From a virus: DNA of 64,000 nt. Both the position numbers and the translations under genes were made by a program. A model generated the notes under the pieces. The model made no database searches and had not been told where the DNA came from. It saw nothing but the letters and a program-made list of their open reading frames with translations. Shown here piece after piece: positions 26,101 to 62,502 of the stretch (position 1 is the stretch's first letter; the number at the start of each line of letters is the position of its first letter). Location: the IMG/VR virus record IMGVR_UViG_3300008448_010404, positions 7,443-71,442 of that record. One strand, written 5' to 3'.

Positions 26101-26110
26101 ATAGTATATA

Positions 26111-26138: not shown

Positions 26139-26139
26139 G

Positions 26140-28147: not shown

Positions 28148-28149
28148 AA

Positions 28150-29495: not shown

Positions 29496-29497
29496 TT

Positions 29498-38398: not shown

Positions 38399-41300
38399 AT
38401 GAGTGTAATACATATAACAAGTTTATCGGGACAATCCCCATTTAATATTACAATTTGTGATAAAACAAAAACTTATTGTGAGTTAGTCGCAACAGGTGTT
38501 GGTTCTGTACCCCCTGTTTTAGATTTAACAATACCCTCAAATATTAAATCAGACACAGTTTTAGTAATTGCCGAAGATTCAACAGGTTGTGAACAAATGA
38601 TTGTTGTTAAATGTAGTACTACACCAACACCAACACCAACAATACAACCAACACCAACTGTAACCCCAACACCAAATAAGTGTAAATGTTATACATTAAT
38701 AAATCCAACATCGGATGAATTGGGTTTTGAAATTACATTATGTAATGGTGACTCTCTTTGTACCACTATAGATAGTTACACTAATTTATATTTTTGTGGT
38801 TATAACCCATCAATAGAATCACCAGGTTACATTGAATATAAAAATTTTGGTTGTGACACAGGTGTCTGTCCTGAACCTGACCCAACTCCAACCCCAACTC
38901 CAACAATCACACCTAGTTTACCACCTATGGTTGCATCTTTTGTTAGTTGTTGTGACCCATCAGTTAAATTCACAGTTTACAATATACCATTAACAAATTC
39001 ACCAATAGGTGGGATTTATTATGTTGATAATAACGGATTTAATGGTTGTGCTGAAGTGATAGAGACTGATATGACTTTACCATTATATCAAAACGAATTT
39101 TTGGTTTCGTCATTAAATTGTAGTCAATGTTTTATTGATAATCCATTATATATTTGTCCAACTAAAACCCCGACACAAACACCTAGTTCAACTGTTACCC
39201 CAACAAATACACAAACACCAACAAACACACAAACGCCAACAGTAACTCCAACAGTAACTCCGACAGTAACACCAACAGTAACACCAACAGTAACACCAAC
39301 AGTAACACCAACAGTAACGCCAACAGTAACGCCAACAGTAACACCGACAGTAACGCCGACAGTCACACCAACAGTCACACCAACAGAAACCCCAACGAAC
39401 ACACCAACAGTAACGCCAACAGTAACACCGACAGTAACTAGAACAGAAACCCCAACAAACACTCCGACAAATACACAAACTCCGACAAATACACAAACTC
39501 CAACAAATACACAAACTCCGACAAATACACAAACTCCAACAAATACACCAACAAATACATCAACTCAAACACCAACAAATACATCAACAAACACCCCAAC
39601 AAAAACCCCAACAAAAACTTTAACAAAAACCCCAACTAATACACCAACTAATACATCAACAAATACTCCGACTAATACACCAACAAATACCCCAACAGTT
39701 ACGCCAACAGAAACACCTACAGTCACACCAACAAAAACGCCAACTAAAACGCCAACTAATACACCAACAAACACCCAAACTAATACTCCAACAGAAACAC
39801 CTACTAATACCCCTACAAACACCCAAACACCCACAAAAACTCAAACACCAACAGTAACTACAACAAAAACACCCACAAAAACACCCACAAATACACCAAC
39901 AAATACACCAACCCAAACCCCAACAAAAACCCAAACCCCAACAAAAACTGAAACACCCACACCAACAGAAACACCAACTCAAACATCTACACCAACAGAA
40001 ACCCCAACACCAACAAATACTGTTACACCAACTGTAACCCCAACTGTAACCCCAACAAAAACACCAACAAAAACCCCAACTGAAACTCCAACTAATACAC
40101 CAACAAACACACCAACTAACACCTCAACTAACACCTCAACTAATACCCCGACCAATACTTCAACTGTAACCCCAACAAAAACACCAACAAAAACTCCAAC
40201 AAACACACCAACTGAAACTCCGACAAATACACCAACCAATACCCCAACAAATACCTCAACAAATACCTCAACAAATACTCCGACTAATACTTCAACAGTA
40301 ACCCCAACAAAAACACCAACAAAAACCCCAACAGAAACCTCAACTCAAACCCCGACTAATACTGTTACCCCAACACAAACACCTACAAATACACCAACAA
40401 ATACACCAACACAAACACCCACACAAACGCCAACAAACACCACAACAAATACTCCAACAAACACACAAACGCCAACAAACACACAAACGCCAACAAACAC
40501 ACAAACTCAAACTCCTACTAACACTCCAACACCAACAATGCCTTATGACATGTTTATTGTCCAAAATTGTTGTGGAGGGACAACAGGATATATGGATTTA
40601 CCAATAATCTATACACCAATTTTTTTCCCAACATATAAGAGTTATGTAGTTGTTGACATTAACGGTAATTGTTATTTAATAACAGGTACTGCACCTGGTG
40701 GTGAAACACCTAATTTTATATGGAATGGTAACCCTAATGACGTATATATTGATAATGGTTCAGGTTGTTCACCATGTTTAGATGTTCATCCTTGTCCAAC
40801 TCAAACACCCACACCTACAAAAACTCAAACACCCACACTTACAAGAACTTCAACCCAAACCCCAACAAATACTCCAACTAATACACAAACCCCAACTAAT
40901 ACACAAACTCCGACTAACACACAAACATCAACACAAACCCCAACTAAAACAAAAACTCCAACACCTACTAAGGCACCTTTAATATGTTTTTCATTTTCAT
41001 CAACAACAGGTACTAATGGTGTGTACACATTTAATGGTAATGCAACTGGAAGTTATAATAATAGACCATACTATTCAATACAAATTCAAGACCCATCAAT
41101 AACTGTTGTAGGTTATGTTTGGTTTAACACATCAACAAATGTTTGGGTTTATTCAGAATTAATTGGTGGGGGTGTTAATTATAGTTCATTAATAACAACA
41201 AATCAGTACCCGATAAGTTCACCATCACTTAATTGGATTGGTTCGGTAAGTGGTAATGGTATGATTTCATCAATTTTAGGTTCATGTCCAACGCCAACAC

Positions 41301-44300
41301 CAACACAAACCCCTACTCAAACACAAACACAAACACCTACTCAAACACAAACATCAACACAAACACCTACTCAAACACCTACACAAACATCAACACAAAC
41401 ACCTACACAAACATCAACACAAACATCAACACAAACACCAACAAATACTCAAACCCCAACAAATACTCAAACACCAACAAACACTCAGACACCAACAAAA
41501 ACACCAACCCCAACAAATACCACATATTGTTACTGTATAGTTATATTAGATTTTACTAGCGAATCAAGTTCAAGTAATTTTATAATATCAATTAATGGTG
41601 TTGAATATCAGTTTGGTGATTTATGGCATAAATCAACATATCTACAATTAGAAAATGATTTAAATTTATTAAATCTAGGTATTTTTACAATAACCCCAAC
41701 ACAATTAGACCCAGATGTAGGTCAAATAAATGTTATAGGTGGTGGGTCAAATACATATGATTATATTAGTGTTGGATTTGGGAATACCCCATTTAATTGT
41801 TATAACTGCCCAACACCAACACCAACAAAAACACCTACTAATACACCAACAAAAACACCAACTAATACACCAACAGACACTCCAACAAATACCCCAACTA
41901 AAACCCAAACATCAACACCAACTAACACTGTTACACCAACTATTACTCTTACAAACACACCAACAAACACACCAACTAATACACAAACACAAACACCGAC
42001 TAAAACAAATACGCCAACAAATACACCAACAAATACACCAACAAATACACCAACACCAACAAACACACCTTCAATTAATATCCCACCTAGCCAAACACCA
42101 ACAAACACACAAACATCTACTAATACACCAACTAATACACCTACTAACACTCAAACACCAACTAAAACTGTAACACCAACTAAAACTGTAACACCAACAA
42201 ACACTCCAACAAATACGTCAACAAACACACCAACAATTACATCAACTAATACACCAACAAACACACAAACACCAACAAACACACAAACACCAACAAACAC
42301 ACAAACACCAACAAACACACAAACACCTACTAAAACACAAACTCCAACAAAAACACCTACAAATACTCCAACGAATACAATAACTAACACACCAACAAAT
42401 ACCCAAACACCGACAAATACAAGAACTAACACACCGACTAACACACAAACTCCAACAAATACACCTACACAAACTCCAACAAACACTCCGACAAATACAC
42501 CTACAAATACTAGAACAAATACACCAACTACCACACCAACCAATACAAGAACTCAAACCCCAACGAATACATCTACTATCACACCAACACCAACTAAAGT
42601 TTGTTATCCGGGCGCTGATTATATAATATTTGAGTATAATTATTTACCAAGTGCAGGAACTGACCTTAATGTTGAAACGACTTTAGTTGTACCGACAACT
42701 GAAGGTCCGGTTGGGTATTGTAGTAATGGTTCACAACCATCAGGACAATACGGTGGTCCTTACTTATATTGGGGTGGTTATAACACTTTAAGTCCTGAAA
42801 CATTTTATGTTGATGTTAACTCTTTAAAAACAACATATCCGTCATTATTTAATTTTACAATAACATCAAATGGTAATTGGTTAACATCTGTAGGTAATGG
42901 TATTGTAAATGTTAAAATAACAATATACGCAGGTGGAACAATGTTATCTAACGGTAACTTTGGATTTACAAATGCTGGTGGGACTATGTTATTACAACAA
43001 ACTATCACATTACCACCAATAACAACTGTTAATAACACATGTTCAATTAGTGAATGTATTAGTTCATTCACATACCAACTTTCTGATGGTTGTATCATTA
43101 AAACCACTTGTTTATCACCAACTCTAACACCTACAAACACCCCAACAAAAACACCTACAAACACCCCAACAAGGACACAAACACCCACAAACACACCAAC
43201 AAAAACGCCGACTAATACCCCTACCAATACACAGACCACAACTAACACAAGAACACAAACTCAAACACCAACACAAACATCAACAAATACACAAACCCCT
43301 ACTCAAACTCCAACAAATACACCCACACAAACTCCAACACAAACCCCTACTCAAACATCCACTCAAACACCAACCCAAACACCAACACCAACGCCAACAC
43401 CAACCATAGACTGTATTCAAGTTTGTGAAACAATACCGGCAACACCTCCTGTAAGTCAATTGACTATTGGATTGGGTAATCAATTATCAGTATACAGTAA
43501 TTTTGGAACATTATTATACCGTGAAGGTCTTTATGATAATTGTGGTGTTGGAACTCCGACTTATTCAATGACAACCGCACCATTATGGAGAAGTACAACA
43601 TCTACCAACGGTCCTTTAAATAATATAGGTATTTTTTCAAACCCTATTGACCAAACACAAAAATGGATTGGATTTACAAAATGTATTGTTGTTACTCAGA
43701 GTAAAAGATATTATATTGGTTTAGCCGCTGATAATAATTATAGATTCTACATTGATGGTGATTTATTTGTTGATACTTCAGGTTGCTACGCATGTAACCC
43801 AGGAGGTGGTGGAGGTGCAACAACGGTATTTAATTATTGGAGAATTTATGAAAGATATTTAGATGCTGGAGTTCACATTATACAAATGTTAGCACAAAAC
43901 TGTGGGGACCAAGCCACAATGGGTGCCGAAATTTATGATAACACAATTCCCGAATTGGTTAATGCACAAACAGATAATGATTTAACTAAAATATTCACAA
44001 CTAAAACATTTAGAGATATTGTTGAAGCCGGTGGAACTAGTTATTTTGACGTTGTTTTAAATAGTAACGGAACCCCAACAACTCAAGGTTACACTTGTCC
44101 TCCAGGATATGTTTATGGTTGTGAACAATGTTATTATTTTTGTAATGTTTGTATAACAAGAACACCAACAAAAACCCCAACAAACACACCAACAAACACC
44201 CCAACACCAACTCAAACACAAACATCAACTAACACACCAACAAGAACACAAACCCCAACAAATACACCAACGAATACACAAACATCAACAAACACTCCAA

Positions 44301-47300
44301 CAAACACACCAACTAATACGCCAACTAATACTCCAACTAATACCCCAACAAGAACTCAAACCCCAACAAATACAAGAACAAATACCCCAACAAACACACC
44401 GACAAATACACAAACCAATACACAAACATCAACTAATACACCCACAAATACACCTACTAATACAAGAACAAACACCCCAACAAGAACACAAACACCGACT
44501 AACACACCAACTAACACACCTACTCAAACACCAACTAATACTCCGACTAATACCGTAACTCCGACTAATACACCAACTAATACCCCAACTAACACAAGAA
44601 CAAACACACCTACAAGAACTGTAACACCAACAAACACACCTACAAGAACTGTAACACCAACAAACACCTCAACAGTTACTCCAACACAAACTCCAACAAA
44701 TATTATTATTTATTTTAAATTTGAAGTGACTAGTTGTTGTCCTCAAGTGACAGGACCTGTATTTATTATGTCATTACCAAGTCATTATCAACCTGTAGGT
44801 ACAACATCATATTCAGTTGTGGATACAACAGGTGTGTGTTTTAGAGTTGGTTCTATTGTTGATGAGTCAACACCAACAAATAGAACTTGGAACGGTAATA
44901 CCTCTCAAGTTATAACAGGTATTAATAATATTAACCCTTGTATTCAATGTAATCTTAATAACGGATGTCCAACCCCAACCCCAACCCCAACCGTTACTCA
45001 AACTCCAACTAACACTCAGACACCTACAAATACACCAACAAACACACAAACACCAACAAACACACCAACACCAACAAACACACCAACAAAAACCCCAACA
45101 AACACACCAACAAGAACACAAACTCCAACAAATACGCCAACCGTAACACCAACAAATACCCCAACGAGAACTGTAACCCCAACAAACACACCAACAAGAA
45201 CACAAACTCCAACAAATACGCCAACACAAACTCCAACAAATACACCAACTAACACTAATACACCAACCGTAACACCAACAAATACCCCAACAAAAACTAA
45301 TACCCCAACTAACACACCTACAAACACACCTACTAAGACACTAACACCAACTAACACACCCACAAATACACGAACACAAACACCAACAAACACAGTTACA
45401 CCTACAAATACACAAACTCAAACACCAACAAACACCCCAACGAGAACTGTAACACCAACAAATACCCCAACGAGAACTCAAACACCAACAAACACAGTTA
45501 CACCTACAAATACACCAACAAAAACAAAAACCCCAACTCCAACAAAAACTCCAACAAATACCCCAACACCATCACCAACACCAGTTCCTGTTGATTACTT
45601 TGTTCAATGTGTTGAAACCGTATGCCCATCAGGTCAAGTTAATTTTGGACCTGAAGATGACCCAGATACTATTTTTGGGACTTGGAATAGATTCGCACTT
45701 TTAGCACCAAACATATTTAACAATTATGCAGGTTCTCCTGTTCTTATTTCCGGTTTACAACCTGACGGGTCAATAATCACTAATAACCCATCATATTATT
45801 TTTACACAGGTGCTACTAATACATATTATTTAGGTGTTTATAATTTACCAATGACTGAAGGTGAAAACGTTGGACCTGTAACTGCCGATGGTTCAATACT
45901 TGGTAAATTTTATTATAACTCAAACATTAAAAAAATGGTTGTTGTTTGGGACGTAGCAGGTGCGGGATACTATGAATGGACAACATTTAACCCAACCGTA
46001 AATGTTGGACTATCTTTAGGTCATCCAACGGCATCACAATTTTTAACAACCTCAACAAATTGGGGAACAACTAATTTAACTAACGCTCAATTCACTGTTA
46101 GTGGTTCTAATAACACTGTAGTTTTAGCAACAACCAAAATAAATGATGCTGGGGGTGTTCCTAAAATGATTCAATGTACAAAAAATAGTGGATTAATTAA
46201 CGGTTTTTATAGTGTATGTGAATACGGTAATTATGTTCACGAAGTAACAATAGGAAGTGAGTATAATGATGATGATTTTATAGGTATTGTTATCGCAGCA
46301 AAAAAAGGTTTAGGTACTAACCCTAACGCAACTGATATGTTAACGTTAGTGTTTAACGGAAATAGTGGTAGTGTTAATGTTGTTTACAACTCAGGTCAAG
46401 ACGTTTACTCATTTAATGATTATGCGGGTTCAACATCTGCGGGTGTTATGATAGGTGGAACTAGTCCATTTGGTACTGGTTATTATAACACCAAAGGTCA
46501 AGTCAGAGTTAAGATTATTAAAACAAGTACAATAGTTAGTATATACACAACTCAACGTATGGGTCTAAATGGTATTGTTCAGGCTGGAAATCCAAATCCA
46601 TATACTTTATTATACCAATTTGATTTAACAGATAAAACAACTTGGAATGGAGCCCCATCATATGCTGTAGGTAATGAATTATTGAAATTTACAAGTGGAA
46701 CTAGTTTTGGTTACTTAACATCATCACAACCACTAAGTCAATTTTATGATATTGAATTTTCAAGTATTCAACAACCTTCAGGTGTTTTATACTCTAAAAC
46801 TGTAACTAACCCTATTTTAGGTAAAACATATTCATTTTATGGTGTGGATGGTTGTTGGCAATATAGTGGTAAAACATTTAACTATACAGAATCTGATTTA
46901 GTAAGTATTACCGCTGAAACAATCAATAATAATTGTATTGATTGTCAAACTAACGTTATTGATTGTTATGAAGTTACATATTCAAATATTACAATACCTG
47001 ATAACTTAGACGCAGTACCTTACCCTGTTAATTTTGTAGTTCCACCGGGTGCGATTACAGGTAATGTTACAAGAGTTGAACTTATTTTGAGTGGATATAC
47101 TCATACATATACTCAAGATGTTGGTATGGTACTTGTCTCACCTAATAATGTTTCATCATTAGTTGTTGGTAGACCTGTAGGTGCCCATGTAGCAAATAAT
47201 ATAAACGTAACACTTAATCATTACAGTCCGGATGTTTGGAATGGTTTTAGTGGTGGGACATATAGAAATAATTCATACGTTAATTATGTGATGAACTTTT

Positions 47301-50300: not shown

Positions 50301-53104
50301 TTGTTGGGACTGATAATATATGTTACATAGTTAACTCATTAGCTGTAGGTCAAACACCTAATAGAACTTGGAACACAACAATACTACCATATAAAAATGA
50401 TGACTCTACACCGGGTTGTGTTAATTGTTCTTCAGTAAGACCTTGTCCATCACCAACACCAACACCAACTAAAACACAAACGCCAACAATGACTAAAACA
50501 CCAACACCAACACCAACAAGATGTCAATATTGTACCACATATAATTCAAACCAAAATAATATAGCAATACCTGGAACAGGCACCGCAGGTACTGCATCGT
50601 CATACCCAATTACATTTAATGTTCAAGGGTTAAACACCTCAATTAGTAAAATTAACATAACTTTAAATAACTATAGTCACGCATGTTTTGCTGACGTTGG
50701 TTTAGTTTTAGTAGCTCCCGATGGGACTTATTCATTACTAAGTATGAGATGTGGTGATTGTATCCAAAGTTCACAAACAGTAATTAACCCAACAATATCA
50801 TCAGATGGTGTAACAACATGGGATGGTAAGAGTTCAGGGACGTTCTCAAACATCACATCACCATGTGGTACGCAAACATTTGCGGTTGTTCCCGGAATCA
50901 CATTACCAACATTTACTAGTGGAGTCCAAACCCCATCATTTACGTCAGCATTTGTAAATAAATCCGCATCATCAGCAAACGGTCAATGGAAATTACTTAT
51001 TCAAGATTTTGGGAATAATGACATAGGTTCATTAGGTAGTGCAACTATCCAAATTTGTCAAAATACCCCATGTGGTTGTAATAGTTATAGGTTTGAAAAT
51101 TACGCACCTGTTTCATTATTTGAAACTGCGACATTCACATTTACACCTTGTTGTAATACTTTAGAAACATCACCAATTAATATTGATAGTAATGCTAAAT
51201 ACATAATCGAAGTTTGTTCATCAACAGTTCCTCAAGTATCAGGACCAGGAACTGTAACATTATTAGGACCATGTGATTATTGTAACAATTCATGTTACTG
51301 TTGGGATTTATTCACCCCTCAATGGACTGACTATGAATTAACCTATCTAAACTGTAGTGGAATTGTAACAAGTATTTATTTAGGACCAGGTAGTAGTTTT
51401 TCAATTTGTTCATCGTCTTATATAACATCACAACCTCAATTTGGGTTTGCCGCGACTAGAAGAGGAACATGTGCTGGAGGTGCTTGTCCAAGTCCAACAC
51501 CAACAAAAACACCAAGTCCAACTCCAACAATGACAAAAACACCAACAAAAACTCCAACACCAACTAAAACACCAACAATGACAAAAACACCAACACCAAC
51601 TAAAACACCAACAAAAACTCCGGTATTTATTCCTTGTGTTGGTGGTGGTTGTGCATTTAACACAACAGGTGATGTAATTTTAGGATTAAATATATTACCT
51701 CAAAATTGTAGTGGTGAATGTGATTTTCTTGGTAGTCCAATATCACCATATTATAGAATAAACCAAGGTCCTTGGATTTTAAGTACTCAATTGTTTTATC
51801 CATCAACATTTAACTGTACTTATACTACACTTAATTTAACAGTACCATATGGTTCAATAGTTGATATATATTTTCCTGGTATAAATTGGGGTGTGGGTAA
51901 TAATAGTGGTGATTTTACATCAAGATGTAATAACCAATACGTAACATATACTGTAACATCAAATACTAATGTTTATTTTAATTTAGGTGTAACAACAACC
52001 TCAACATGGAATCCATCACCAACCCCTTGGGACCCACCATATATCACATATTCTTGTAATTTCACATCATGTTATAACAATAGAACACCTTATCCATGGG
52101 TATATACGTATACTAAATCATTATATGAAATATCCAACTTTAACGACCCATATTCATTTGAATTAATAACTGTTTATACTGAAAGTGGTGGAACATATAA
52201 TGGTAAATCTTATTACGAAATTCCTGATAGTGATTATACTACTATTACGTCATATGTGTGGTATAATTCAGGGACAACTGAATGGAATAGTTCATCACTA
52301 TTAGGTTCAGGTACGCTATACACAACATTAATAAGTAGTTCACCTGATGAACCAGTTGATTCATCATCAAATGAATGGCAAATTATTGATTACTCAGGTC
52401 CGATAATAATTAGTTCACAACCTCAATACCCTATAGTTTCAACAGGTCTAATTGTTTGGTTAGATGCTGGAGCTAAAATATCGTGGTCAGGTACAGGTTT
52501 TGTTTGGTATGATATCACAACAAATAATAACGATGGTACTTTTTACCAATCTTTAAGTGCCACAACACCAAATTATTTACCGGCAAATGGTGGTTCATTT
52601 ACTTTTAACGGTAGTGACCAAAAATTCAATATATCTAACTCACCAACATTATCGGCAATAACAAATACCGTTACTGTTGAGGTTTGGTTGAAACCAACTT
52701 TGTTTGACAATAGAGAGATTTTTAGTAAAAATAGTAACCAAGGATTTAGAATGTGGATAAACACATTAGGTCAATTAACTATGTTAGGTGCTAACGCCTC
52801 TAGTTATGAAGAATTTAGCAGCACAGGTACTGTGACTTTAAATCAATGGAATCAAGTTGTTGGGGTGTGGACACCTACAGGGTTTTACACTTATATTAAC
52901 GGTGTTAATTCAGGTAATAGTTCGGCGTTGTCATTTTTAATACAACAATATAACTTATCACTTGATATTGGTTGTTTCACAGGTAACTTAGCACAATTCC
53001 ACTATCAAGGTGATATGTCAATATTTAGGTTATATAATAGGGCCTTAACTTCAGATGAAGTTTTATCAAACTTCAACTCTCAAAAAGATAGATTCGGTTT
53101 ATAA
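38399..53104 (+). CDS. Giant (4901 aa) mucin-like Thr/Pro-rich, Cys-rich multidomain protein, probable virion fibre/adhesin
   Basis: About 13 long T-P-T-x tracts alternating with globular modules: 3 proprotein-convertase P-domain-like units (~46975, ~48860, ~50530), a TSP_C-like DDDFIG lectin segment, 4 CC-containing modules and a C-terminal LamG (~52430-53101). No signal peptide seen. Confidence 0.9.
39157..40540 (+). repeat. Longest Thr/Pro low-complexity tract, including 12 x 12-bp (PTVT) at 39236-39379
   Basis: CCAACAGTAACN units counted directly; the rest is mixed [16 protein letters not shown]. Confidence 0.95.
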
Positions 53105-53113
53105 TTAAATCTT

Positions 53114-53120
53114 TATTTAT
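53114..53120 (+). promoter_or_regulatory. TATTTAT motif upstream of the GT60 operon
   Basis: 37 nt before ATG 53158; no terminator hairpin seen between the giant gene and GT60. Confidence 0.4.
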
Positions 53121-53157
53121 ATATTAATAAACTTATTTTTTTAAAAAAAAGTAAAAT

Positions 53158-54405
53158 ATGAAAATTTTTGTGCAAATTGCATCGTATAGAGACCCAGAAT
53201 TGGAAAACACAATCAAAAGTATGATTGAAAATGCTAAGAAACCTAATAATCTTAGAATAGGTATCTGTAGACAGTATCATCCCGAAGATGGTTTTGATAC
53301 TTTAAGTGAATACAGAAAAGATAAAAAATTTAGAATTTTAGATGTTTTATATTCAGATTCTAAAGGAGTTTGTTGGGCAAGAAATCAAGTTCAACAATTA
53401 TACGGTGGTGAAGAATATACTATGCAAATAGACTCACATATGAGATTTGAAAAAAATTGGGATGATGAGTTTATTAAAATGGTTAAACAATTACAAAAAA
53501 AAGGATTTAAAAAACCTTTATTAACAGGTTATGTATCATCTTTTAATCCGGAAAATGACCCTGAAGAAAGAGTTAGAGAACCTTGGAGAATGGTGTTTGA
53601 TAGATTCATACCTGAAGGTGCGGTATTCTTTTTACCTGAAACTATACCAGGTTGGGAAAATTTAAAAGAACCTGTACCATCAAGATTTTATTCCGCACAT
53701 TTCGCATTTACCGTTGGTAAATTTAGTACTGAAGTTCAACATGACCCTGAGTTTTATTTTCACGGGGAAGAGATTTCAATCGCGGCAAGAGCTTACACAC
53801 ATGGGTATGATTTATTTCACCCCCACAAACCATTAGTATGGCACGAATATACAAGAAAAGGTAGAACTAAACAATGGGATGACGATATCGAATGGGTTAA
53901 CAAAAATAATGTATCACATAAAAAGAATCGACAACTTTTTGGAATGGACGGTGAAATTGCCGAAGATGATTTTGGTATATATGGGTTTGGAACAGAAAGA
54001 GAATTATTGGACTATGAGATTTATTCAGGTTTAAGATTTTCAAAGAGAGCGGTTCAACAATACACTTTAGATAAACATTACCCACCAAACCCTACAATTT
54101 ACGGAACAGAACAAGAATGGGAAGAAAGTTTTGCATCTATTTTTAAACACTGTATAGATATTGGTTATGATTCAGTTCCTGAAACGGACTATGAATATTG
54201 GGTTGTTGCATTTCATGATGAAAATGATGAAACAATACACCGATTAGATGCTGACATACATGAAATTAATCGTATGAAAAATGACCCTGATGGGTATTGT
54301 AAAGTGTGGAGAGAATTTCAAACAACACATAAACCAAAATATTGGGTGGTATGGCCATTTTCAACATCAAAAGGATGGTGTGATAGAATAACAGGTGATT
54401 TATAA
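53158..54405 (+). CDS. GT60 (PF11397 GlcNAc) polypeptide alpha-GlcNAc-transferase-like glycosyltransferase
   Basis: IFVQIASYRD.E...TI, G.CWARN..Q.LY.GE.Y.MQIDSHMRF..NWD (DSH metal motif), F.GEEI..AARAYTHGYD. Confidence 0.85.
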   Translation: MKIFVQIASYRDPELENTIKSMIENAKKPNNLRIGICRQYHPEDGFDTLSEYRKDKKFRILDVLYSDSKGVCWARNQVQQLYGGEEYTMQIDSHMRFEKNWDDEFIKMVKQLQKKGFKKPLLTGYVSSFNPENDPEERVREPWRMVFDRFIPEGAVFFLPETIPGWENLKEPVPSRFYSAHFAFTVGKFSTEVQHDPEFYFHGEEISIAARAYTHGYDLFHPHKPLVWHEYTRKGRTKQWDDDIEWVNKNNVSHKKNRQLFGMDGEIAEDDFGIYGFGTERELLDYEIYSGLRFSKRAVQQYTLDKHYPPNPTIYGTEQEWEESFASIFKHCIDIGYDSVPETDYEYWVVAFHDENDETIHRLDADIHEINRMKNDPDGYCKVWREFQTTHKPKYWVVWPFSTSKGWCDRITGDL

Positions 54406-54408
54406 TAT

Positions 54409-54798
54409 ATGAATTTAAGATTAGTAACAAATAACTCAAAATATTACGAATTTATTCGTGAGTTGAGAAATCATACAGATAATCTCTCAGGATTTATTAT
54501 TCAAACAAATATCACAAAAGAAGACCAAATTAAATATATGGAAAAGTATGAAAAATTTTACTATATAGCGATTAATGAAAGTGAAATACCTGTTGGTTTT
54601 ATTGGTGTTGTTGATAATGATATTCGTGTTGCCGTACATCCTGATTTTAAAAATCAAGGTGTTGGTAAATTTATGGTTAATGAAATAATAAATAATTATC
54701 CTAACTCTATTGCTAAAATTAAAATAGATAACACGGCAAGCATTAAGTTATTTGAATCTTGTGGGTTTAAAACTAAATTTTTAATAATGTCAAAATGA
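54409..54798 (+). CDS. GNAT acetyltransferase (probable sugar N-acetyltransferase)
   Basis: VHPDFKNQGVG, N.ASIKLFESCGF; adjacent to the aminotransferase. Confidence 0.8.
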   Translation: MNLRLVTNNSKYYEFIRELRNHTDNLSGFIIQTNITKEDQIKYMEKYEKFYYIAINESEIPVGFIGVVDNDIRVAVHPDFKNQGVGKFMVNEIINNYPNSIAKIKIDNTASIKLFESCGFKTKFLIMSK

Positions 54799-55439
54799 AT
54801 TATAGAAGACCATTACATAATCCGTTTAAAGTTGTTCAACTTTTTGAGGAAGAAGTTGCTGATTATACAGGTGCTAAATATGCAGTATCAGTAGATAGTT
54901 GTACTAATGCGATTTTTTTATGTTGTAAATATTTAAATGTTAAACAAGTAACCATCCCATCAAAAACTTATCTATCAGTCCCACAATCAATTATACATTC
55001 GGGTGGTGAAGTAATCTTTGATAAAAGAGATGTAACTAATAATTGGGAAGGTATTTATCAGTTAAAACCTTATAACATATACGACTCAGCGAAAAGATTC
55101 ACTTCAAACATGTATATACCAGACACATTTATGTGTTTGTCATTTCATATTAAAAAACATTTAAAAATATCTAAAGGCGGTATGATTTTAACTGATAATT
55201 TAGATGCCGTTAAATGGTTTAAAAAAGCGAGATATGAAGGTCGTAGTGAAAAATTATATCATGAGGATGATATCGAAATGTTGGGGTGGAATATGTATAT
55301 GACACCCCAACAAGCATCTCATGGTTTATCATTAATGCAAAACATATCACCTAATAATCCTGACTTAATTGAGAATGACGGGTATCGTGATTTAACCGAA
55401 TTCACAATTTTTAAAAAACATAAAATAATATATGAATAA
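54795..55439 (+). CDS. Short DegT/DnrJ/EryC1/StrS sugar aminotransferase
   Basis: FEEEVADYTGAKYAVSVDSCTNA, YDSA, SFHIKKHL..GGMILTD, GWNMYM. Confidence 0.85.
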   Translation: MNYRRPLHNPFKVVQLFEEEVADYTGAKYAVSVDSCTNAIFLCCKYLNVKQVTIPSKTYLSVPQSIIHSGGEVIFDKRDVTNNWEGIYQLKPYNIYDSAKRFTSNMYIPDTFMCLSFHIKKHLKISKGGMILTDNLDAVKWFKKARYEGRSEKLYHEDDIEMLGWNMYMTPQQASHGLSLMQNISPNNPDLIENDGYRDLTEFTIFKKHKIIYE

Positions 55440-58400
55440 AATTTGTTTTGTATTAGATTGTCATTATTCTAATTATACTAACCGACTAAAAACCACATCA
55501 TTAAAAAATTTTATTGATTTAAAACTTAATGAGTATGGGGTTCATTTTTTGATATCAACAAATCAACCTGAAGATTTTAAAGATTTTGAATCGGAATATA
55601 TCAAAATTTTTGATATAAATGAATTACGTAAAGATAATGATGTCTCTTTAACCTATGAATTATTACCTGATGACCCTACAGGTATTTATCCTTCAAGATT
55701 CCCTTGGAATATCGAAAGGTTTATCTTGAAAAAAGCTGGTGAGTTAGGGTTTAATATCGTGATTAATTTAGATTCTGACGTTATAATAGATGAACGTTTT
55801 ACTTCAGAATATATTATCCAACACATTGAAAACTCATTTGTTGAAAACACGGTTATGACTAATCAAGCGTTATTTTCATATGAAGAAAATTCAACTAACG
55901 AAATCTTTAACTTACATAATAGATACATTGAACATTTCAATTTAGATTTTAAAACTGAGGAGTATAATAGTCTAGACGGTCCTGTTGTAATTTACATGGG
56001 AAAAACATCAGATGATATATTAAGATACGCCGAAAATTGGGATATGTTAACTTCATTTGGTTACACTAAACCTTTAGGTTTTGGTTATGAAAATATTGTT
56101 TGTGGTAATTGGTCATTATGTATTCCTATGTCAAATTTTAAATTAAAATGGCATGATTTTCCATTAACCCCACACCATAAATTTGAAGATAGATATGATA
56201 TGTCAAAAGTTAATACACCTATTAGTGAATCAAAAACAAGTGATATTAATGAACCTAATATAATTTATGTTAATGATAATGTAACAAATGACATAAAAGA
56301 AAAAATAAACGATACTTTGGGTTCAATTTTTGAAAAATACTCATCAGAAACCCATGGTGGTGATTTTTCTAATTTATTAAATGACGTTGTAACATTAATT
56401 AATAACAAAATAACAAATGAAACTAAAGTAATTAATAATAACATTACATTAGATTCTTTATTTGAAAAGTATTCTTGTTCAAAATTAGAACATGGTTTTT
56501 CTAAAATATTTGAACCTTATTTAAATCAATTAAAAAATAGTAATCCGTCAATACTAGAAATTGGAATTGGTACAATAACTGACATACCGTTACCTGAAAT
56601 GACCCACGTACCAGCAAACATGAGAGGGTGGAAAGAAAATAACCCTAATTATTTACCCGGAAATTCGTTGAGGGCTTTTAGGGATTATTTAAATACAGGT
56701 GTTATTTATGGTATTGATAATCAACCTGACTGTCTTTTAAATGAAGACAGAATAGAAACACATATTTTTGATTCAAGAAGTAAAAAACACTCTAAAAATT
56801 TTATTAAAGATAAAAGTTTTGATTTAATCATTGACGACGGTGATTTAGACCCAAATATAAGAATTATTAATTTTAATAATTATTTTGAATCGTTAAAAGA
56901 TGATGGTTATTATGTGATACTAGGTTTATTAGGTGAACATTTTTTAAAAACATATTTTACTGAACTTGATATACCATTTATTATTAAAGATAATAACATT
57001 ATTTTAAATAAAAAAAACGATTTTAATGTGTTTAACATTACACCTAATATGATAGCCACAAAACCAGCTACGGTTGTCGAAATAAATAACAAAGTTATTG
57101 ATTATTCGGAAGATATTAAATCGACTCCGATGTTTTCAATAAACGATAATATATTTGCAGAAAAAGGGTTTTATATTAATTTAGATACTAGTGTTAATCG
57201 AAAGGAAAATGTTGAGTCTCAAATAGAGAAATATAACATTAAAGGACTATTAAGATTTGACGCTTTGAGAGATTCTATGATACAATATTCATGTACTAAA
57301 AGTCATCTTTCTGTATTTCAAACGTGTTTAGATAATAATATTGAATCTGTTTTTGTGGCTGAAGACGATTTTCAGATTGAAGAAAATCTTTATTTACCTA
57401 ATGAAAGTAATATCCCATCGTTCAATGATAAAATTAAGGAAGTTAAAAACGATTTAGATAACTTAGAATGGGATGTGTTTTTATTTGGTTGTAATCCAAA
57501 AACTCATATTGTTCCATTAACAAATAATGTTGGTATTATTAATAAAAGTACAGGTGCATGGGCTTATATAATTAAAAAACGTGCTTATGAATATTTAATG
57601 AAAAATTTAAATTACAAACGTGATTATATAGCAATTGATGATTATCTACCTTTATTAAACGACAATGGATTTATAACTTTAACTTCATTACCAATGACTA
57701 TTGGTCATGCAATTGGTTTTGAATCAACATTACAACCAAGAGGACCTGTAAACTACACCGAATGGATTAGAGGTTCATACCATAGATTTTTATTTGATAA
57801 CTACCCAAATAATAATTTCACAACCACAAAAATAGAAAAATCCTTAACAATATTTATACCCGGATTTTTTTGTGATGAATATATGAAATATTTAAGATAC
57901 GCGTTAAAAAGTATTCCAAAAGAATTAAGACAATGTAAATTTATAATAAGATTTGATACACCGACAAAAAATTATGATTTAACAAAATTTATGGGTTTAC
58001 AAGCTTATTTTAAAGATGTTAGAAATGATTTAAATGTTAATTTAACTTATGGGTTTGGAGGTCTTATTTCAAGTTTTGATTATTTTTTAAAACAGGTTAA
58101 AACACCTTATTTTATGATGTTCGAGTTTGATTATGTGTTCTTAAATAACGAAGAAATAAACTTTAACGGTATTATTGATTCTTTTAATAAATATAACTTT
58201 ATTAACTCCATTTATTTAAATGGTGATGATAATAGTCTTAGAGGATTCGATATTAACCCCGATTTAAATGGTAATGAAACCCCTTTTGAATTAGAACAAA
58301 GGGTAAGTGAGATTAATTTAATTACCACGACAAGATGGTCAAATAGACCTGGAATCCATAGAGTTTCAAAAATGAAAGAATGGTTTGATAAATACATATG

Positions 58401-58662
58401 GAATGAACAAATTGGGGTTGTCCACCAAAGTTGTTATGGTGTTGAGGATTCAATGATACCAGCTTATCGTAAAATAATAAGCCAAAATAATTGGACCGAC
58501 ATTAAAGATGATTGGGGAACTTACATATATGGTAATTTTAATGAGGGTCCGTTTATCGCTCATACAGATTCATCAAGAAGATACCAAGGTGATATTAAAA
58601 CAATACTAGAAATTAACGCAGAGAAATACATGGAAGAAAATCCATTAAATGATAATGATTAA
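55432..58662 (+). CDS. Multidomain glycan enzyme: GT-A, methyltransferase-like, GT25, GT-A
   Basis: INLDSDV; ILEIGIG..SLRAFRDY..YGID..FDLIIDDG; FYINLD....RK..CTKSH..AEDD..WDVFLFG; FEFDYVF..WSNRP. Confidence 0.75.
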   Translation: MNKICFVLDCHYSNYTNRLKTTSLKNFIDLKLNEYGVHFLISTNQPEDFKDFESEYIKIFDINELRKDNDVSLTYELLPDDPTGIYPSRFPWNIERFILKKAGELGFNIVINLDSDVIIDERFTSEYIIQHIENSFVENTVMTNQALFSYEENSTNEIFNLHNRYIEHFNLDFKTEEYNSLDGPVVIYMGKTSDDILRYAENWDMLTSFGYTKPLGFGYENIVCGNWSLCIPMSNFKLKWHDFPLTPHHKFEDRYDMSKVNTPISESKTSDINEPNIIYVNDNVTNDIKEKINDTLGSIFEKYSSETHGGDFSNLLNDVVTLINNKITNETKVINNNITLDSLFEKYSCSKLEHGFSKIFEPYLNQLKNSNPSILEIGIGTITDIPLPEMTHVPANMRGWKENNPNYLPGNSLRAFRDYLNTGVIYGIDNQPDCLLNEDRIETHIFDSRSKKHSKNFIKDKSFDLIIDDGDLDPNIRIINFNNYFESLKDDGYYVILGLLGEHFLKTYFTELDIPFIIKDNNIILNKKNDFNVFNITPNMIATKPATVVEINNKVIDYSEDIKSTPMFSINDNIFAEKGFYINLDTSVNRKENVESQIEKYNIKGLLRFDALRDSMIQYSCTKSHLSVFQTCLDNNIESVFVAEDDFQIEENLYLPNESNIPSFNDKIKEVKNDLDNLEWDVFLFGCNPKTHIVPLTNNVGIINKSTGAWAYIIKKRAYEYLMKNLNYKRDYIAIDDYLPLLNDNGFITLTSLPMTIGHAIGFESTLQPRGPVNYTEWIRGSYHRFLFDNYPNNNFTTTKIEKSLTIFIPGFFCDEYMKYLRYALKSIPKELRQCKFIIRFDTPTKNYDLTKFMGLQAYFKDVRNDLNVNLTYGFGGLISSFDYFLKQVKTPYFMMFEFDYVFLNNEEINFNGIIDSFNKYNFINSIYLNGDDNSLRGFDINPDLNGNETPFELEQRVSEINLITTTRWSNRPGIHRVSKMKEWFDKYIWNEQIGVVHQSCYGVEDSMIPAYRKIISQNNWTDIKDDWGTYIYGNFNEGPFIAHTDSSRRYQGDIKTILEINAEKYMEENPLNDND

Positions 58663-58667
58663 CAATA

Positions 58668-59414
58668 ATGAATAAACGTTCTAAATTTAAATATAAAAGA
58701 TTTGTTATTGCCGATGCAGGATTTGTTATCAATTTACCTAAAAGAACCGACCGAAAAGAACAAGTTACTAAAACTTTAAAAGATTTAAAATTTAGTGGAT
58801 GGGAATTTTTTGAAGGTATTACAGAATCAGACCCTTTTTGGCATAAATATGGTTGTACTCAAAGTTTTATAAAAATTTTTGAAAAATCAATTAAAGAAAA
58901 TTATAAATCAATTGTTATTTTTGAAGATGACATTAGGTTAGCATCTTCATGTAATGTTCAAGATATTGATAACATTTTTCGTAATTGGCGTAAAGAATCT
59001 AAAAAATATGATTTAATTGGTTTGGGTACAAGACCTTTAGATGATGCCAAAGTTTTAAGAGAATCTGAAAATTTCGGTAAAATCACTAATTGTGTCTGTG
59101 CTCACGCTTGGTATTATACGTTAGATTTTATGAAATATGCTGTCGAAGAATTAAAAGATATTAAAAATCCTGAAGACAAAAATTATAGAACAATTATTGA
59201 TGAATTTATAAATGATAGTTGTTCAACGGAATATAGATGGAAAACCCATAATAAAATTTTTAGAGCCGGAGTAACAATACCTTTAATGTTTGTCCAATCA
59301 CCAGGTTTTTCTGATAACGAAAATGGTTATTTTGATTACACAGGTTTTATTGAGGATTTGTATTATATGGCACTACGTAGAGGTGATGAAATAATAAAAA
59401 ATAAATTAAATTAA
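58668..59414 (+). CDS. GT25 glycosyltransferase
   Basis: FVINLPKRTDRK, GCTQS, IFEDD, QSPGFSD. Confidence 0.85.
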   Translation: MNKRSKFKYKRFVIADAGFVINLPKRTDRKEQVTKTLKDLKFSGWEFFEGITESDPFWHKYGCTQSFIKIFEKSIKENYKSIVIFEDDIRLASSCNVQDIDNIFRNWRKESKKYDLIGLGTRPLDDAKVLRESENFGKITNCVCAHAWYYTLDFMKYAVEELKDIKNPEDKNYRTIIDEFINDSCSTEYRWKTHNKIFRAGVTIPLMFVQSPGFSDNENGYFDYTGFIEDLYYMALRRGDEIIKNKLN

Positions 59415-59416
59415 AT

Positions 59417-61813
59417 ATGTTAGAAACAATTTTAAATTTTACTAATAGTAAATTAGACCACGGAATGAATACTCCGGAACAAGTTAATAGTTTAGTAACT
59501 AAGTTATATTCATTAATCGAAAATAATGTTGAGGGTGATGTTGTTGAATTAGGTTGTTATGTGGGTGAATCATCAAAATACTTAATGAAAACATTAGTTG
59601 AGACCAATAGTCGAAAAAATCTATTTGTATATGATTCATTTGAAGGATTACCTGATTTATCCAAATGGGAAGAAAATACAGGTTGGAGACCAAGAACTTT
59701 AAACACAACTGAAGAAATACTTATTAGTAATTTTAGAGAAAATAATTTACCATTACCTATTATACATAAAGATTGGTTTAAAAATATACCTGAATATAAA
59801 ATACCTGATAAAATATGTTTCGCATTTTTAGATGGTGATTTTTATGATTCAATATATGATAGTTTAACAAAAATCTACGATAAAGTTGTTGATGGGGGTG
59901 TTATATTCTTTCATGATTATTTAAGACCTGATTTACCTGGTGTTGACGCGGCGATTAGAGATTTCTTAAACACAAAAAATTTACCATACACAGTAACTGA
60001 AGCATGTAATCAATTAGGTATGTTAATTAAATCAAACAATCCAATAACACCCGAACATTTAGAAGAAAAAAAAAATGAAATAATAGAACCAATATTAAAC
60101 AAGTCAAATAGTAAAGTAACAATTGTTACGGGTCTTTGGGATATTGGTCGTGATAAATTAACAAATGATTGGTCTCGTAGTTTTGATTATTATTTAGAAA
60201 AATTTGATGAGTTATTAAAAATTGAAAACAATTTAATTATTTTTGGTGACGAACAGTTACAAAAATTTGTAATGAGTCGTAGAGATTCATCTAACACTCA
60301 ATTTATTTTACGTAGTACTGATTGGTTTAAAAATAATGATTATTATGAATTAATTCAAAAGATTCGTTTAAAACCTGATTGGTATGAACAAGTTGGTTGG
60401 TTAAAAGATTCAACACAATCCAAATTAGAACTTTATAATCCATTAGTTATGAGTAAAATGTTTTTACTTAATGATGCTAGAATAATGGACAAGTTTGAAT
60501 CCGATTATTTGTTTTGGCTTGATGCTGGTATATCAAATACTGTTCATCCGGGTTATTTTACTCACGATAAAGTTATTAATAAATTACCAAATTACGTTAA
60601 AGATTTTTTATTTGTAGCATTCCCTTATGATGCTGAGAACGAAATTCACGGATTTAAATATGAAGCAATTAATAGATATTCAGGGAATAATGTGAAATTA
60701 GTAGGTAGAGGTGGTTTTTTTGGTGGACATAAAGATACTATCCAAGAGGTTAATTCAATTTATTATTCATTACTAATTGAAACTTTATCTAAAGGTTTTA
60801 TGGGGACAGAAGAAAGTATTTTTTCGATACTAATTTACCGTCATTCTAATTTAACTAGTTATTTCGAACTTGAATCAACGGGTCTAATTAATAAGTTTTT
60901 TGAAGAATTAAAAAACGATAATGTTGTTATCAATAAAATTTCAAATAATGTTGTTGAACTTTCTAATTCATCATATGATAATAATACAATAACAAATACC
61001 CCATCAGAAAATGTTGGTGTTTATGTAATAGGTTTTAATAGTCCTAAACAATTTGAAACTCTAATTACATCAATGTTAGAATATGATAAAAATTTCATCG
61101 AAAAACCTAGAAAAATTTTGTTAGATAACTCAACGGATTTATCAACGACACCAAAATATAGTGAACTATGTTCTAAATACGGTTTTGAACATATTAAAAA
61201 GGATAATTTAGGGATTTGTGGTGGTAGACAATGGATTGCAGAACATTTTGATAAATCAAATTTAGAATACATGTATTTTTTTGAGGATGACATGTTTTTC
61301 TACCCTAAAAAAGGTGAAGTATGTAGAAACGGATTTAATCGTATGGTTGATGATTTATACTACAAAAGTATTAATATAGCGAAGATTGAAAATTTTGATT
61401 ATTTAAAACTTAATTTTAGTGAGTTTTTTGGGGATAATTCAACACAATGGTCGTGGTATAATGTACCACAAGTAGTTAGAGATGAATTTTGGCCCGAATA
61501 TTCTAAATTACCTGAACAAGGAACTGACCCTAACGCACCTAGAGTTAAATATGATAGTGTTAAAATACACGAAGGTGTTCCATATGTAACAGGTGAGATT
61601 TATTATTGTAATTGGCCACAATTAGTTTCTAAATCAGGTAGTAGAAAAATGTTTTTAAACACTACTTGGGCACACCCATATGAACAGACTTGGATGAGTT
61701 TTATGTTTCAAGAAGTGAAAAAAAATAATTTAAATTTTGGATTACTTTTACTCACACCGACGGAACACGATAGATTTGACCATTATAGTAGAGAATTAAG
61801 GAAAGAAAGTTAA
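59417..61813 (+). CDS. Fusion: TylF/MycF sugar O-methyltransferase, HtrL/YibB-like domain, GT-A domain
   Basis: GDVVELGC..G.S, YDSFEGLP, FAFLDGDFYDS, HDY..LPGV; VTIVTGLWDIGR, SKMFLL, FWLDAG, GTEES; NLGICGGRQ..FFEDDM. Confidence 0.8.
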   Translation: MLETILNFTNSKLDHGMNTPEQVNSLVTKLYSLIENNVEGDVVELGCYVGESSKYLMKTLVETNSRKNLFVYDSFEGLPDLSKWEENTGWRPRTLNTTEEILISNFRENNLPLPIIHKDWFKNIPEYKIPDKICFAFLDGDFYDSIYDSLTKIYDKVVDGGVIFFHDYLRPDLPGVDAAIRDFLNTKNLPYTVTEACNQLGMLIKSNNPITPEHLEEKKNEIIEPILNKSNSKVTIVTGLWDIGRDKLTNDWSRSFDYYLEKFDELLKIENNLIIFGDEQLQKFVMSRRDSSNTQFILRSTDWFKNNDYYELIQKIRLKPDWYEQVGWLKDSTQSKLELYNPLVMSKMFLLNDARIMDKFESDYLFWLDAGISNTVHPGYFTHDKVINKLPNYVKDFLFVAFPYDAENEIHGFKYEAINRYSGNNVKLVGRGGFFGGHKDTIQEVNSIYYSLLIETLSKGFMGTEESIFSILIYRHSNLTSYFELESTGLINKFFEELKNDNVVINKISNNVVELSNSSYDNNTITNTPSENVGVYVIGFNSPKQFETLITSMLEYDKNFIEKPRKILLDNSTDLSTTPKYSELCSKYGFEHIKKDNLGICGGRQWIAEHFDKSNLEYMYFFEDDMFFYPKKGEVCRNGFNRMVDDLYYKSINIAKIENFDYLKLNFSEFFGDNSTQWSWYNVPQVVRDEFWPEYSKLPEQGTDPNAPRVKYDSVKIHEGVPYVTGEIYYCNWPQLVSKSGSRKMFLNTTWAHPYEQTWMSFMFQEVKKNNLNFGLLLLTPTEHDRFDHYSRELRKES

Positions 61814-61843
61814 AAGAGGTTGTAAAACCTCTTTTGTTTTTTT
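61812..61843 (+). terminator. Rho-independent terminator closing the second glycan operon
   Basis: AAAAGAGGTT-GTAA-AACCTCTTTT followed by a T-run. Confidence 0.88.
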
Positions 61844-61875: not shown

Positions 61876-62502
61876 ATGGATTTTTTTATTAAAAAAAATG
61901 CAACATTACCTTTATTAAAATTACAAGTAGTTAATAACGGAAGAAGTGATTTTGACAATTTTATGAAAACAATAGAATTGTCAGCTATCTTTTTTTCTAT
62001 GGTGGATGTTGAAACAGGTATTGCTAAAGTTACGTCAAAACCAGCAGGTTTTGTTGAGAAAACATTCACTGACCCAAATTCAGAACCTGAGTATTATATA
62101 TATTACCAATTAACTTCAACCGACACTAATCGTGTTGGTAAATTTGAAGCTCAATTCTTATTACGAAATGATGAGGGTGTTTTAATATTACCAATACGAG
62201 AAAAATTAACAGTTTATGTTCAAGATTCATTTATCGCCAACGATTTAGATTATGAAAGTTGTTACGTATCTGAGTTTCCATGTTGTGTTAACGGACCATA
62301 TATTACAACAACAACAACCTCATACCCTTGTTCAACACCAACACTAACACCAACAAGTTCACCTACACCAACACCGACACCTACACCAACACAAACACCA
62401 TCACCAACACCACCATCACAACCACAACCTGAACAAAATCCGATATTAATTGGTGAAGATAGTTATTTATCTATAGGTGATAATGAATATCTAAGTTTTT
62501 AA
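61876..62502 (+). CDS. BppU-N-like baseplate/fibre adaptor with a Thr/Pro tail
   Basis: FFIKKNATLP.L......Y.L...DT...G.FEAQF......LILP, then TTTTT/PTPT tract. Confidence 0.6.
   Translation: MDFFIKKNATLPLLKLQVVNNGRSDFDNFMKTIELSAIFFSMVDVETGIAKVTSKPAGFVEKTFTDPNSEPEYYIYYQLTSTDTNRVGKFEAQFLLRNDEGVLILPIREKLTVYVQDSFIANDLDYESCYVSEFPCCVNGPYITTTTTSYPCSTPTLTPTSSPTPTPTPTPTQTPSPTPPSQPQPEQNPILIGEDSYLSIGDNEYLSF

Follow-up and report, generated by a model that had tools for sequence, protein, structure and literature searches.

Eukaryotic mucin-type members of glycosyltransferase family GT60 belong to the secretory pathway, where they are type II membrane proteins of the Golgi. One of them, Dictyostelium ModB/Gnt2, starts O-glycans on Thr/Pro-rich proteins, the PTVT repeats of PsA among them. 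The available part of PMC6939170 places Trypanosoma cruzi OGNT and Skp1 Gnt1 in GT60 and describes the characterized members as polypeptide N-acetylglucosamine (GlcNAc) transferases. Gnt1 is presented there as a cytoplasmic, soluble enzyme that requires PhyA, the chain being extended by Gal and Fuc transferases. Here we analyzed a 64,000-nucleotide stretch of viral DNA (the window; positions 7443-71442 of the 71.4-kb viral contig IMGVR_UViG_3300008448_010404), in which a 4901-residue protein rich in Thr and Pro (T/P) is encoded just upstream of a GT60-type gene. A first-pass annotation had proposed that the phage O-glycosylates this giant fiber in the host cytoplasm, with the GT60 enzyme as the initiator, and that the resulting glycocalyx may serve rigidity, host-glycan mimicry or shielding. 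Its proposal was partly supported by genome-level co-occurrence, by the statistics of the gene directly upstream of GT60 (position -1), by the fact that the enzymes are cytoplasmic, and by the glycoproteins of phage XacN1. From the sequence data, we favor with moderate confidence a GT60-initiated O-glycosylation of the T/P linkers on the phage's own fiber-like proteins.

Viruses that glycosylate their own particles are known. Giant viruses encode their own glycosylation machinery, as proposed here, but they have eukaryotic hosts and use other linkages and other transferase families; to our knowledge, no T/P mucin-like repeats are involved. Mimivirus fibrils carry virus-made glycans. Likewise, the structural protein Vp54 of the chlorovirus PBCV-1 is decorated by cytoplasmic glycosyltransferases and sugar-nucleotide enzymes that the virus encodes (PMC5852040, in the part available). 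Mycobacteriophage glycosyltransferases put glycans on the C-termini of capsid and tail-tube proteins (Freeman et al. 2023, cited in the accessible part of PMC12619734). These C-terminal sites recall the T/P tail of a 747-aa (amino acid) protein in the window, whereas the mycobacteriophage targets are not giant linker-rich fibers. XacN1 has at least two virion glycoproteins, which were proposed to be made by phage glycosyltransferases; its two glycosyltransferases are ORF328 and ORF334 (Yoshikawa et al. 2018, PMC5852040), and GT60 and T/P tracts go unmentioned in the portion of the article available. We found that ORF334 is a GT60 homologue, 47.6% identical to the enzyme of the window. The earlier statement that no characterized phage pathway has this design is qualified by the mycobacteriophage and XacN1 systems, and the system would add a new variety to phage virion glycosylation without founding a category of its own. 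Our literature search retrieved no paper linking GT60/PF11397 to phage T/P-rich proteins; GT60 was met in a phage context only in a CAZy list of a virome preprint.

The product of the GT60 gene matched PF11397 with 236 bits (cut-off 21), two stretches covering the profile. Residues D92 and H94 (the DxH motif, here DSH), Q39, R75, E204, E205 and H229 were invariant in 47 diverse GT60 sequences. Both results bear out the family assignment of the first-pass annotation, which had named the profile search as a check. PF11397 is shared with the eukaryotic mucin-type enzymes (T. cruzi OGNT, Gnt2/ModB), the DxH residues may correspond to the DxH/DxD metal-binding motif of a GT-A catalytic core, and the proposed phage acceptors are likewise Thr/Pro-rich repeats, PTVT units included. 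By analogy with this family, we propose that the phage protein is an initiating polypeptide N-acetylhexosamine (HexNAc) transferase. The six-frame PF11397 search was also positive in the relatives of the phage and in XacN1. Among NCBIfam models, none matched the protein, a sequence search of the PDB gave no relative, and the homologue search at the protein level returned only near-identical metagenome proteins with uninformative names. The family itself is large: we found 235 close relatives in IMG/VR, at least 584 viral stretches with a broader profile, at least 566 stretches in bacterial genomes, and 4577 protein clusters.

In contrast to the membrane-bound eukaryotic enzymes, the phage enzyme is soluble. 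Its maximum 19-aa hydropathy of 0.88 indicates no membrane segment, and hydropathy revealed none in any other enzyme of the cluster. At the N-terminus of the giant protein, a hydropathy and sequence check detected neither a signal-like stretch nor a membrane segment. It follows that any glycosylation has to occur in the cytoplasm, as had been suggested before. The secretory route and Golgi-type membrane transferase of the mucin pathway were thus found neither for GT60 nor for the giant protein; the system may work like a mucin system, but it would not be a member of the eukaryotic pathway. The Skp1 pathway (PhyA - Gnt1 - PgtA) is closer in that its GT60 enzyme is also soluble and cytoplasmic, and the phage has genes for fucose supply and fucosyl/galactosyltransferase-like proteins. 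Gnt1, however, modifies one hydroxyproline on one protein and needs a prolyl hydroxylase, while the phage offers hundreds of potential repeat sites.

The giant open reading frame (ORF) encodes the long tandem Pro/Thr/Ser-rich tracts that define mucin domains; T makes up 25.3% and P 11.7% of the whole protein. With a tract defined as a 15-aa window with T+P of at least 60%, we counted 16 tracts covering 2015 of the 4901 residues (41%), and 12 of these were 53 aa or longer. The previous estimate of about 13 tracts was thus a fair one. The tract residues comprise 932 T, 413 P, 195 N, 121 Q, 81 K, 74 V and 62 S, corresponding to 46% T and 20% P, with Pro in an alternating X-Pro-X-Pro register. The 12 PTVT repeats, previously described as perfect, are so in the protein; at the DNA level, the 12 units of 12 nt differ by synonymous changes. 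This implies conservation of the protein repeat and not a perfect DNA repeat.

To quantify the association at the genome level, we counted a DNA pattern encoding TPTxTPT, with the reversed pattern as the control. Relatives carrying a 77-83% identical GT60 include complete genomes of 321-322 kb, one of them with direct terminal repeats. The three complete relatives of ~322 kb (G001-G003) contained 103-141 motifs, G004 (91% complete) 108 and G005 (73% complete) 59, against 0-1 for the reversed pattern. Only four of 50,697 GenBank phage records had GT60 relatives (44-48% identity), namely the jumbo phages XacN1, Xoo-sp13, CM1 and RAS14. These cultured phages yielded 51, 51, 22 and 22 motifs, respectively, and no reversed ones. 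As controls, we used the five phages nearest by capsid protein, including the Xanthomonas jumbo phage XaC1, together with Atu_ph07, SCTP-2, RB16 and AYL; the absence of GT60 was established by a profile search with a positive control. None of these nine phages (3.06 Mb) contained the motif, and the reversed pattern occurred 0-3 times. The resulting split (9/9 versus 0/9) gave a Fisher p value of 4e-5, with only two independent GT60-bearing lineages behind it.

The motif counts were followed to the protein level in two phages. In XacN1, long in-frame T/P tracts occur in 15 ORFs, of which ORF369, 370 and 372 form a block directly after the tail-sheath genes and ORF325 follows the baseplate wedge. 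Beyond this shared combination of T/P ORFs and GT60, XacN1 differs from the phage of the window by its host, its GC content and a carbamoyltransferase gene after GT60. In the complete relative G001, we counted at least 8 long T/P ORFs, spread over three regions, and their N-terminal parts are homologous to the five T/P proteins of the window. Since there are about 8 or more T/P paralogues per genome, some of them 95 kb away from GT60, the system is not the pair of one gene and one enzyme that the first-pass annotation had seen in the giant ORF and GT60. In the 71.4-kb contig, T/P tracts are confined to five ORFs, all of which flank the sugar block at 33.5-62.5 kb.

The gene neighborhoods of GT60 gave a second, local measure of the association. 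We scored ORFs with at least 30 T/P-tract residues at positions -6 to +6 around GT60. The ORF directly upstream was T/P-positive in 66/80 close loci and 28/80 diverse ones. No BLAST similarity to the window proteins was detected for 18 of those 28, and several diverse upstream ORFs start with a different short N-terminal domain that leads into a T/P tract at once. When one locus was kept per GT60 cluster, T/P tracts at position -1 were found in 22/70 cases as compared with 46/685 at other positions (85% clustering, p = 1e-8); the corresponding values were 42/99 and 72/946 at 95%, and 8/37 and 17/351 at 75%. Bacterial GT60 is spread over several phyla, with Acidobacteriaceae, Verrucomicrobia, Gemmatimonadetes and Sphingomonas among the carriers. 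From 80 bacterial loci, 70 were analysable, and position -1 was T/P-positive in 7/64 cases versus 7/519 elsewhere (p = 3e-4). The pre-set co-occurrence test thus came out in favor of the association in whole genomes and at position -1, in phages as well as in bacteria. In two Gemmatimonadaceae metagenome-assembled genomes (L321 8507-9232 and L341 9323-9961), small PqqD-domain proteins with a C-terminal T/P/S tail stand directly before GT60; their layout suggests a carrier or recognition domain to which a glycosylatable tail is attached.

Several observations weigh against GT60 acting on the T/P tracts. T/P linkers are a common, unmodified style of linker, and we know of no characterized GT60 from any bacterium or phage. 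There was no T/P ORF within 10 kb in 32 of the 80 diverse phage loci and in 56 of the 70 bacterial loci. The -1 gene of GT60 in G001 lacks a T/P tract, some T/P genes of this genome are 95 kb from GT60, and in XacN1 GT60 does not adjoin any T/P gene. In the reverse test, PF11397 was present in 16 of 48 IMG/VR records picked by a TPTxTPTxTPT-coding motif; for the records at least 90% complete, it was found in 3/9 and missing in 6/9. G021, an example of those without it, had 170 motif hits, with strand and frame unverified. Phage loci share ancestry, so the p values overstate independence. The assignment of the T/P proteins as putative virion-attached fibers or whiskers draws on two things, their architecture and the gene neighborhoods in XacN1. 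The XacN1 glycoproteins are displayed in a supplementary figure, outside the part of the article used here, and their identity does not enter our comparison (PMC5852040).

The reverse-test counts are soft, because the motif is blind to strand and frame; those for G006, G020, G021, G023, G029, G030 and G040 refer to the DNA level only. In G041, with 165 motifs and GT60 in an 820-aa frame, the tracts are 160-240 kb from GT60. G050 was dropped as a T/P case, since its hits stem from the complementary strand of a gene with (GV)n repeats beside a distant GT60. In this 108-kb complete viral record, the gene encodes a 740-aa protein with long (GV)n repeats (L210 10336-12555) next to the distant GT60-like gene. 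With counter-examples in both directions, the link between GT60 and T/P tracts is an association and not an obligatory pairing. The first-pass annotation had held that homologues unlinked to T/P genes would speak against its proposal; many GT60 loci are of this kind, and position -1 is enriched.

The same facts can be read in another way: the T/P tracts would be plain linkers, and GT60 would have a different target, either another virion protein (of the capsid, sheath or tube, for instance), a polymer of the host envelope or some soluble glycan. The motif-rich records without PF11397, the many GT60 loci without T/P neighbors and the distant T/P genes of G001 fit this explanation. The sugar islands of the window resemble O-antigen-type clusters (GMD, GT2, GT10, GT11, GT25), and the mycobacteriophage glycans reside on capsid and tail-tube C-termini (PMC12619734, in the part available). 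We nevertheless regard it as rather unlikely, as it leaves both the 9/9 versus 0/9 split and the -1 enrichment in phages and bacteria unaccounted for. A lipid-linked envelope glycan is further disfavored by the lack of membrane segments in the block enzymes and by the lack of any flippase/polymerase-like gene among the window proteins.

A different acceptor was also considered. If GT60 acted like Skp1 Gnt1, a host prolyl 4-hydroxylase would come first, and the glycan would start on hydroxyproline. Gnt1 itself sets the precedent, as a cytoplasmic soluble GT60 needing PhyA (PMC6939170, in the part available), and the Pro content and register of the tracts would suit such an enzyme. The best-scoring multidomain GT60 homologues in a library of 1.8 billion proteins, which have up to four GT60 domains fused to a PF13640 oxygenase, also count against Thr as the acceptor. 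P0123, P0125, P0126 and P0130 are proteins of 1600-2500 aa that combine up to four tandem GT60 domains with P4H-type PF13640/PF13661 domains, and P0123 has an AhpC/TSA-like domain as well. Taken as a Rosetta-stone hint, the fusions suggest that part of the family may be hydroxyproline-directed, like Skp1 Gnt1, and some prokaryotic GT60 enzymes might then act on hydroxyproline. On the other side, PF13640 was found in 0/10 phage records (both lineages, four at least 90% complete) and PF13661 in 0/5, while the positive-control genomes matched. The phage records thus contain no dedicated prolyl 4-hydroxylase to act before GT60; a host enzyme could supply the activity. The lack of a phage prolyl hydroxylase favors Thr over hydroxyproline, and no feature of the tracts is better conserved than Thr across the lineages examined. 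A hydroxyproline-linked glycan on the window proteins therefore seems very improbable to us.

Comparison with the relatives gave information about the nature of the giant protein. The gene upstream of GT60 encodes between 182 and more than 3315 aa, and the N-terminal 140-250 aa of the giant are the part most often detectably similar. In most relatives, the distal part of this gene showed no detectable similarity to the giant; its C-terminal ~470 aa are kept in five of the closest relatives (L005, L006, L008, L009 and L069). Such a design of anchor, linker and variable tip would be expected for virion fibers or receptor-binding proteins. L222 encodes a 1526-aa T/P-linker protein upstream of GT60, the tip of which is a run of RCC1-like repeats (GQLGLG...). 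This tip shows what appears to be a free exchange of distal modules on T/P scaffolds.

The variable length of the upstream gene could also mean that the giant ORF is not part of the virion but an adhesin or enzyme scaffold, released or bound to the cell, that is produced upon infection, or in part an artifact of assembling repeat-rich DNA, and that its adjacency to GT60 is inherited synteny without function. Every Logan contig ended within the T/P repeats, so the repeat numbers and the order of the modules depend on the original assembly alone. Adjacency within one lineage is, moreover, not phylogenetically independent. Against these points, the globular parts were matched at 100% identity by Logan contigs from four runs of four studies, and one contig (51586-53185) spans the gap between the giant ORF and GT60 and reaches the first 28 nt of the latter. 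Homologous long ORFs are present in many independent contigs. The giant has no signal peptide or membrane anchor for export, its anchor-linker-tip design and the XacN1 T/P ORFs beside sheath and baseplate genes fit structural proteins, and non-homologous T/P proteins occupy position -1 in other phages and in bacteria. We therefore consider a non-virion or artifactual giant ORF improbable. In the bin 48206-48772, which lies in the giant ORF and contains a T/P tract, the summed contig depth rose to 2000-5200x in three of the four runs, compared with ~5-30x elsewhere. This jump implies that other very abundant organisms or phages in the samples probably share near-identical T/P-coding words.

With the above results in hand, we can outline how the preferred glycosylation of T/P linkers by GT60 would proceed. 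The five proteins of the 33.5-62.5 kb region combine a short conserved N-terminal domain, T/P linkers and variable distal modules (P-domain, PA14-like, LamG, C1 peptidase). GT60 would start the chain by transferring a HexNAc to Thr hydroxyl groups in the tracts; analogy with the family suggests UDP-GlcNAc as the donor and an alpha-linked GlcNAc as the product. Every T/P protein of the phage, and not the neighboring one alone, would be modified in this way, while in the host cytoplasm and no later than assembly. The HtrL-like protein and a strain-variable cassette (two GT25 proteins, O-methyltransferase, GNAT) would extend and cap the glycan, and the fucose/GT10/GT11/GT25 island on the other strand may add to it. 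Gene content, solubility of the enzymes, synteny and co-occurrence are direct results of the analysis; Thr in the tracts as the acceptor, the identity of the donor sugar, the location in the virion and the function of the glycan are our inferences.

If this holds, no earlier mucin-type protein O-glycosylation system (Thr-linked, repeat-directed) would have been assigned to a phage, or to GT60 outside eukaryotes. It provides a testable enzyme-substrate pair, GT60 and a (PTVT)12 peptide, and would suggest the nature of the unexplained XacN1 virion glycoproteins. It would also bear on the origin of eukaryotic mucin-type glycosylation and on the way in which huge phages make long appendages that resist proteases or are shielded by glycans. 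A wider reading, which is tentative and somewhat doubtful in our view, is that phage and bacterial GT60 enzymes are cytoplasmic mucin-type initiators with substrates typically encoded directly upstream. In these abundant freshwater jumbo phages, about 8 or more fiber proteins per virion, with thousands of Thr sites, would be covered by glycans that vary between strains and may carry fucose and methyl groups. The result would be a viral bottle-brush glycocalyx formed independently of a secretory pathway, and the prokaryotic and viral pool of enzymes may be the evolutionary source of the eukaryotic GT60/GT27 initiation step.

Table 1. Features of the window, with nucleotide positions counted from its first letter; residue numbers (aa) refer to the giant protein unless another protein is described in the row.
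Feature	Position	Strand	Details
Second, larger sugar island	12632..30715	-	GT2s, Fcl-like, GMD, methyltransferase, GT10, GT11, GT25, double GT2, GT2/GT1-like genes
Fcl-like epimerase/reductase	17013-18107	-	
GMD-like	22274-23254	-	392 bits, just below the equivalog cut-off of 415
GT10-like	24498-25277	-	
GT11-like	25279-26100	-	
GT25-like	26140-26904	-	
Double GT2	26756-28147	-	
747-aa protein with ~60-aa C-terminal T/P tail	33528..35771	+	61 T/P-tract residues
435-aa protein: P-rich linker, C-terminal papain-like (C1) peptidase	35850..37157	+	PF00112 7.6e-5; phrog_16701 6.5e-52
386-aa protein: 78-residue T/P tract, C-terminal domain without known family	37162..38322	+	
4901-aa modular fiber/adhesin-like protein	38399..53104	+	T/P tracts separating Cys-containing globular modules
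(PTVT)12 run, longest (PTVT)n	39236..39379	+	aa 280-327, within the 467-aa first long T/P tract
Three P-domain modules of the giant protein	aa 2857-3022, 3500-3668, 4048-4221		Pfam P_proprotein
Laminin_G_3 (LamG) domain	C-terminal end of the giant protein		1.9e-20
Intergenic spacer, 53 nt, A+T-rich	53105..53157	+	Between giant ORF and GT60
GT60-type glycosyltransferase, 415 aa, soluble	53158..54405	+	PF11397 1.2e-69
GNAT N-acetyltransferase, weakly PseH-like	54409..54798	+	
DegT/PseC-like aminotransferase, 214 aa	54795..55439	+	Profile positions 31-97 of 380
1076-aa protein: GT25 domain aa 619-738, remainder without known family	55432..58662	+	
248-aa GT25-family glycosyltransferase	58668..59414	+	1.5e-11
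798-aa protein: TylF-type O-methyltransferase aa 14-194, HtrL/YibB-like aa 233-479, C-terminal 320 aa without known family	59417..61813	+	
Terminator-like hairpin, 11 bp then TTTTTTT	61811..61836	+	Closes the + strand block
208-aa protein with C-terminal T/P/S tract	61876..62502	+	Just past the terminator

The ORF map and the profile searches confirmed the gene order reported earlier, from the giant ORF and the 53-nt gap through GT60, GNAT, DegT, the GT25 genes and the O-methyltransferase to HtrL (Table 1). The giant ORF and GT60 are not separated by any terminator-like site. Five T/P proteins, presumed to belong to the virion, flank the sugar block, and a single terminator lies at the end of the block. 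The T4 late-promoter motif TATAAATA gave 12 matches versus 16.9 expected; neither the giant ORF nor GT60 was preceded by a match in + orientation, and sigma-70-like sites were not above shuffles.

In relatives, GT60 follows a T/P gene and is itself followed by 2 to 5 kb of variable sugar genes, the HtrL-like gene and a gene homologous to that of the 208-aa protein. That the sugar genes vary between conserved flanks suggests that the glycan is under diversifying selection. The 798-aa protein was found in 11/11 relatives; in ten of them aa ~232-798 matched at 49-77% identity, and in L236 the match covered aa 234-485 only, at 21%. The N-terminal 140 aa of the 208-aa protein are kept beside the HtrL-like gene. 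The 1076-aa protein has a full-length homologue in L059 and partial ones in L222 and L008. The GNAT and DegT genes of the earlier annotation are present here, but the 11 relatives compared have no counterparts, and DegT is shortened; what is conserved is the frame of T/P gene, GT60, variable genes, HtrL and T/P gene. DegT is probably a decaying remnant of a swapped-in cassette.

Upstream of the giant ORF, the 747-aa protein matched no Pfam family, and 734 aa of it align with a G001 homologue at 55% identity. An N-terminal domain of ~50 aa is common to the 435-aa and 386-aa proteins. A C1 peptidase adjoins giant T/P proteins both here and in XacN1, where the ORF382 peptidase is ~1 kb away from the T/P ORF384 of more than 2800 aa; this parallel joins two unrelated GT60-bearing jumbo phages. 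Besides the modules in Table 1, the giant protein has two further repeated module types and a weak PA14 match below the cut-off. PDB sequence searches with aa 2401-3023 and aa 4414-4901 gave no match. A PDB match to aa 1-252 (8x8h, 2.7e-6) overlaps a T/P tract and was taken as a low-complexity match.

The window has a G+C content of ~29% and encodes a Gp23-type major capsid protein (PF07068, 1.8e-73), in line with the phage origin stated in the first-pass annotation. This capsid type and the genomes of the relatives, larger than 200 kb, are those of T4-like jumbo myophages. The estimated completeness of the 71.4-kb contig is 24%, which, together with the 321-322-kb complete relatives, makes it a fragment of a jumbo myophage; by these comparisons, the window is roughly one quarter of a ~320-kb freshwater phage. 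The closest GenBank phage capsids are ~41% identical and belong to an uncultured 484-kb phage, to Microcystis phage Mel-JY01 and to Flavobacterium immuto phages. Metagenome runs with matching DNA were labelled freshwater, lake water, plankton and 'fungus'.

The gene set of the minus-strand island is that expected for fucosylated, Lewis/H-like glycans, as predicted from the families listed in Table 1. The island is a possible source of glycan extension and GDP-fucose supply, and its tie to the T/P proteins is presumptive. Interspersed among its sugar genes, also on the minus strand, are PhoH (16158-16931), a dUTPase/dCTP-deaminase-like gene (28150-28764) and a PolB-exonuclease-like gene (28764-29495).

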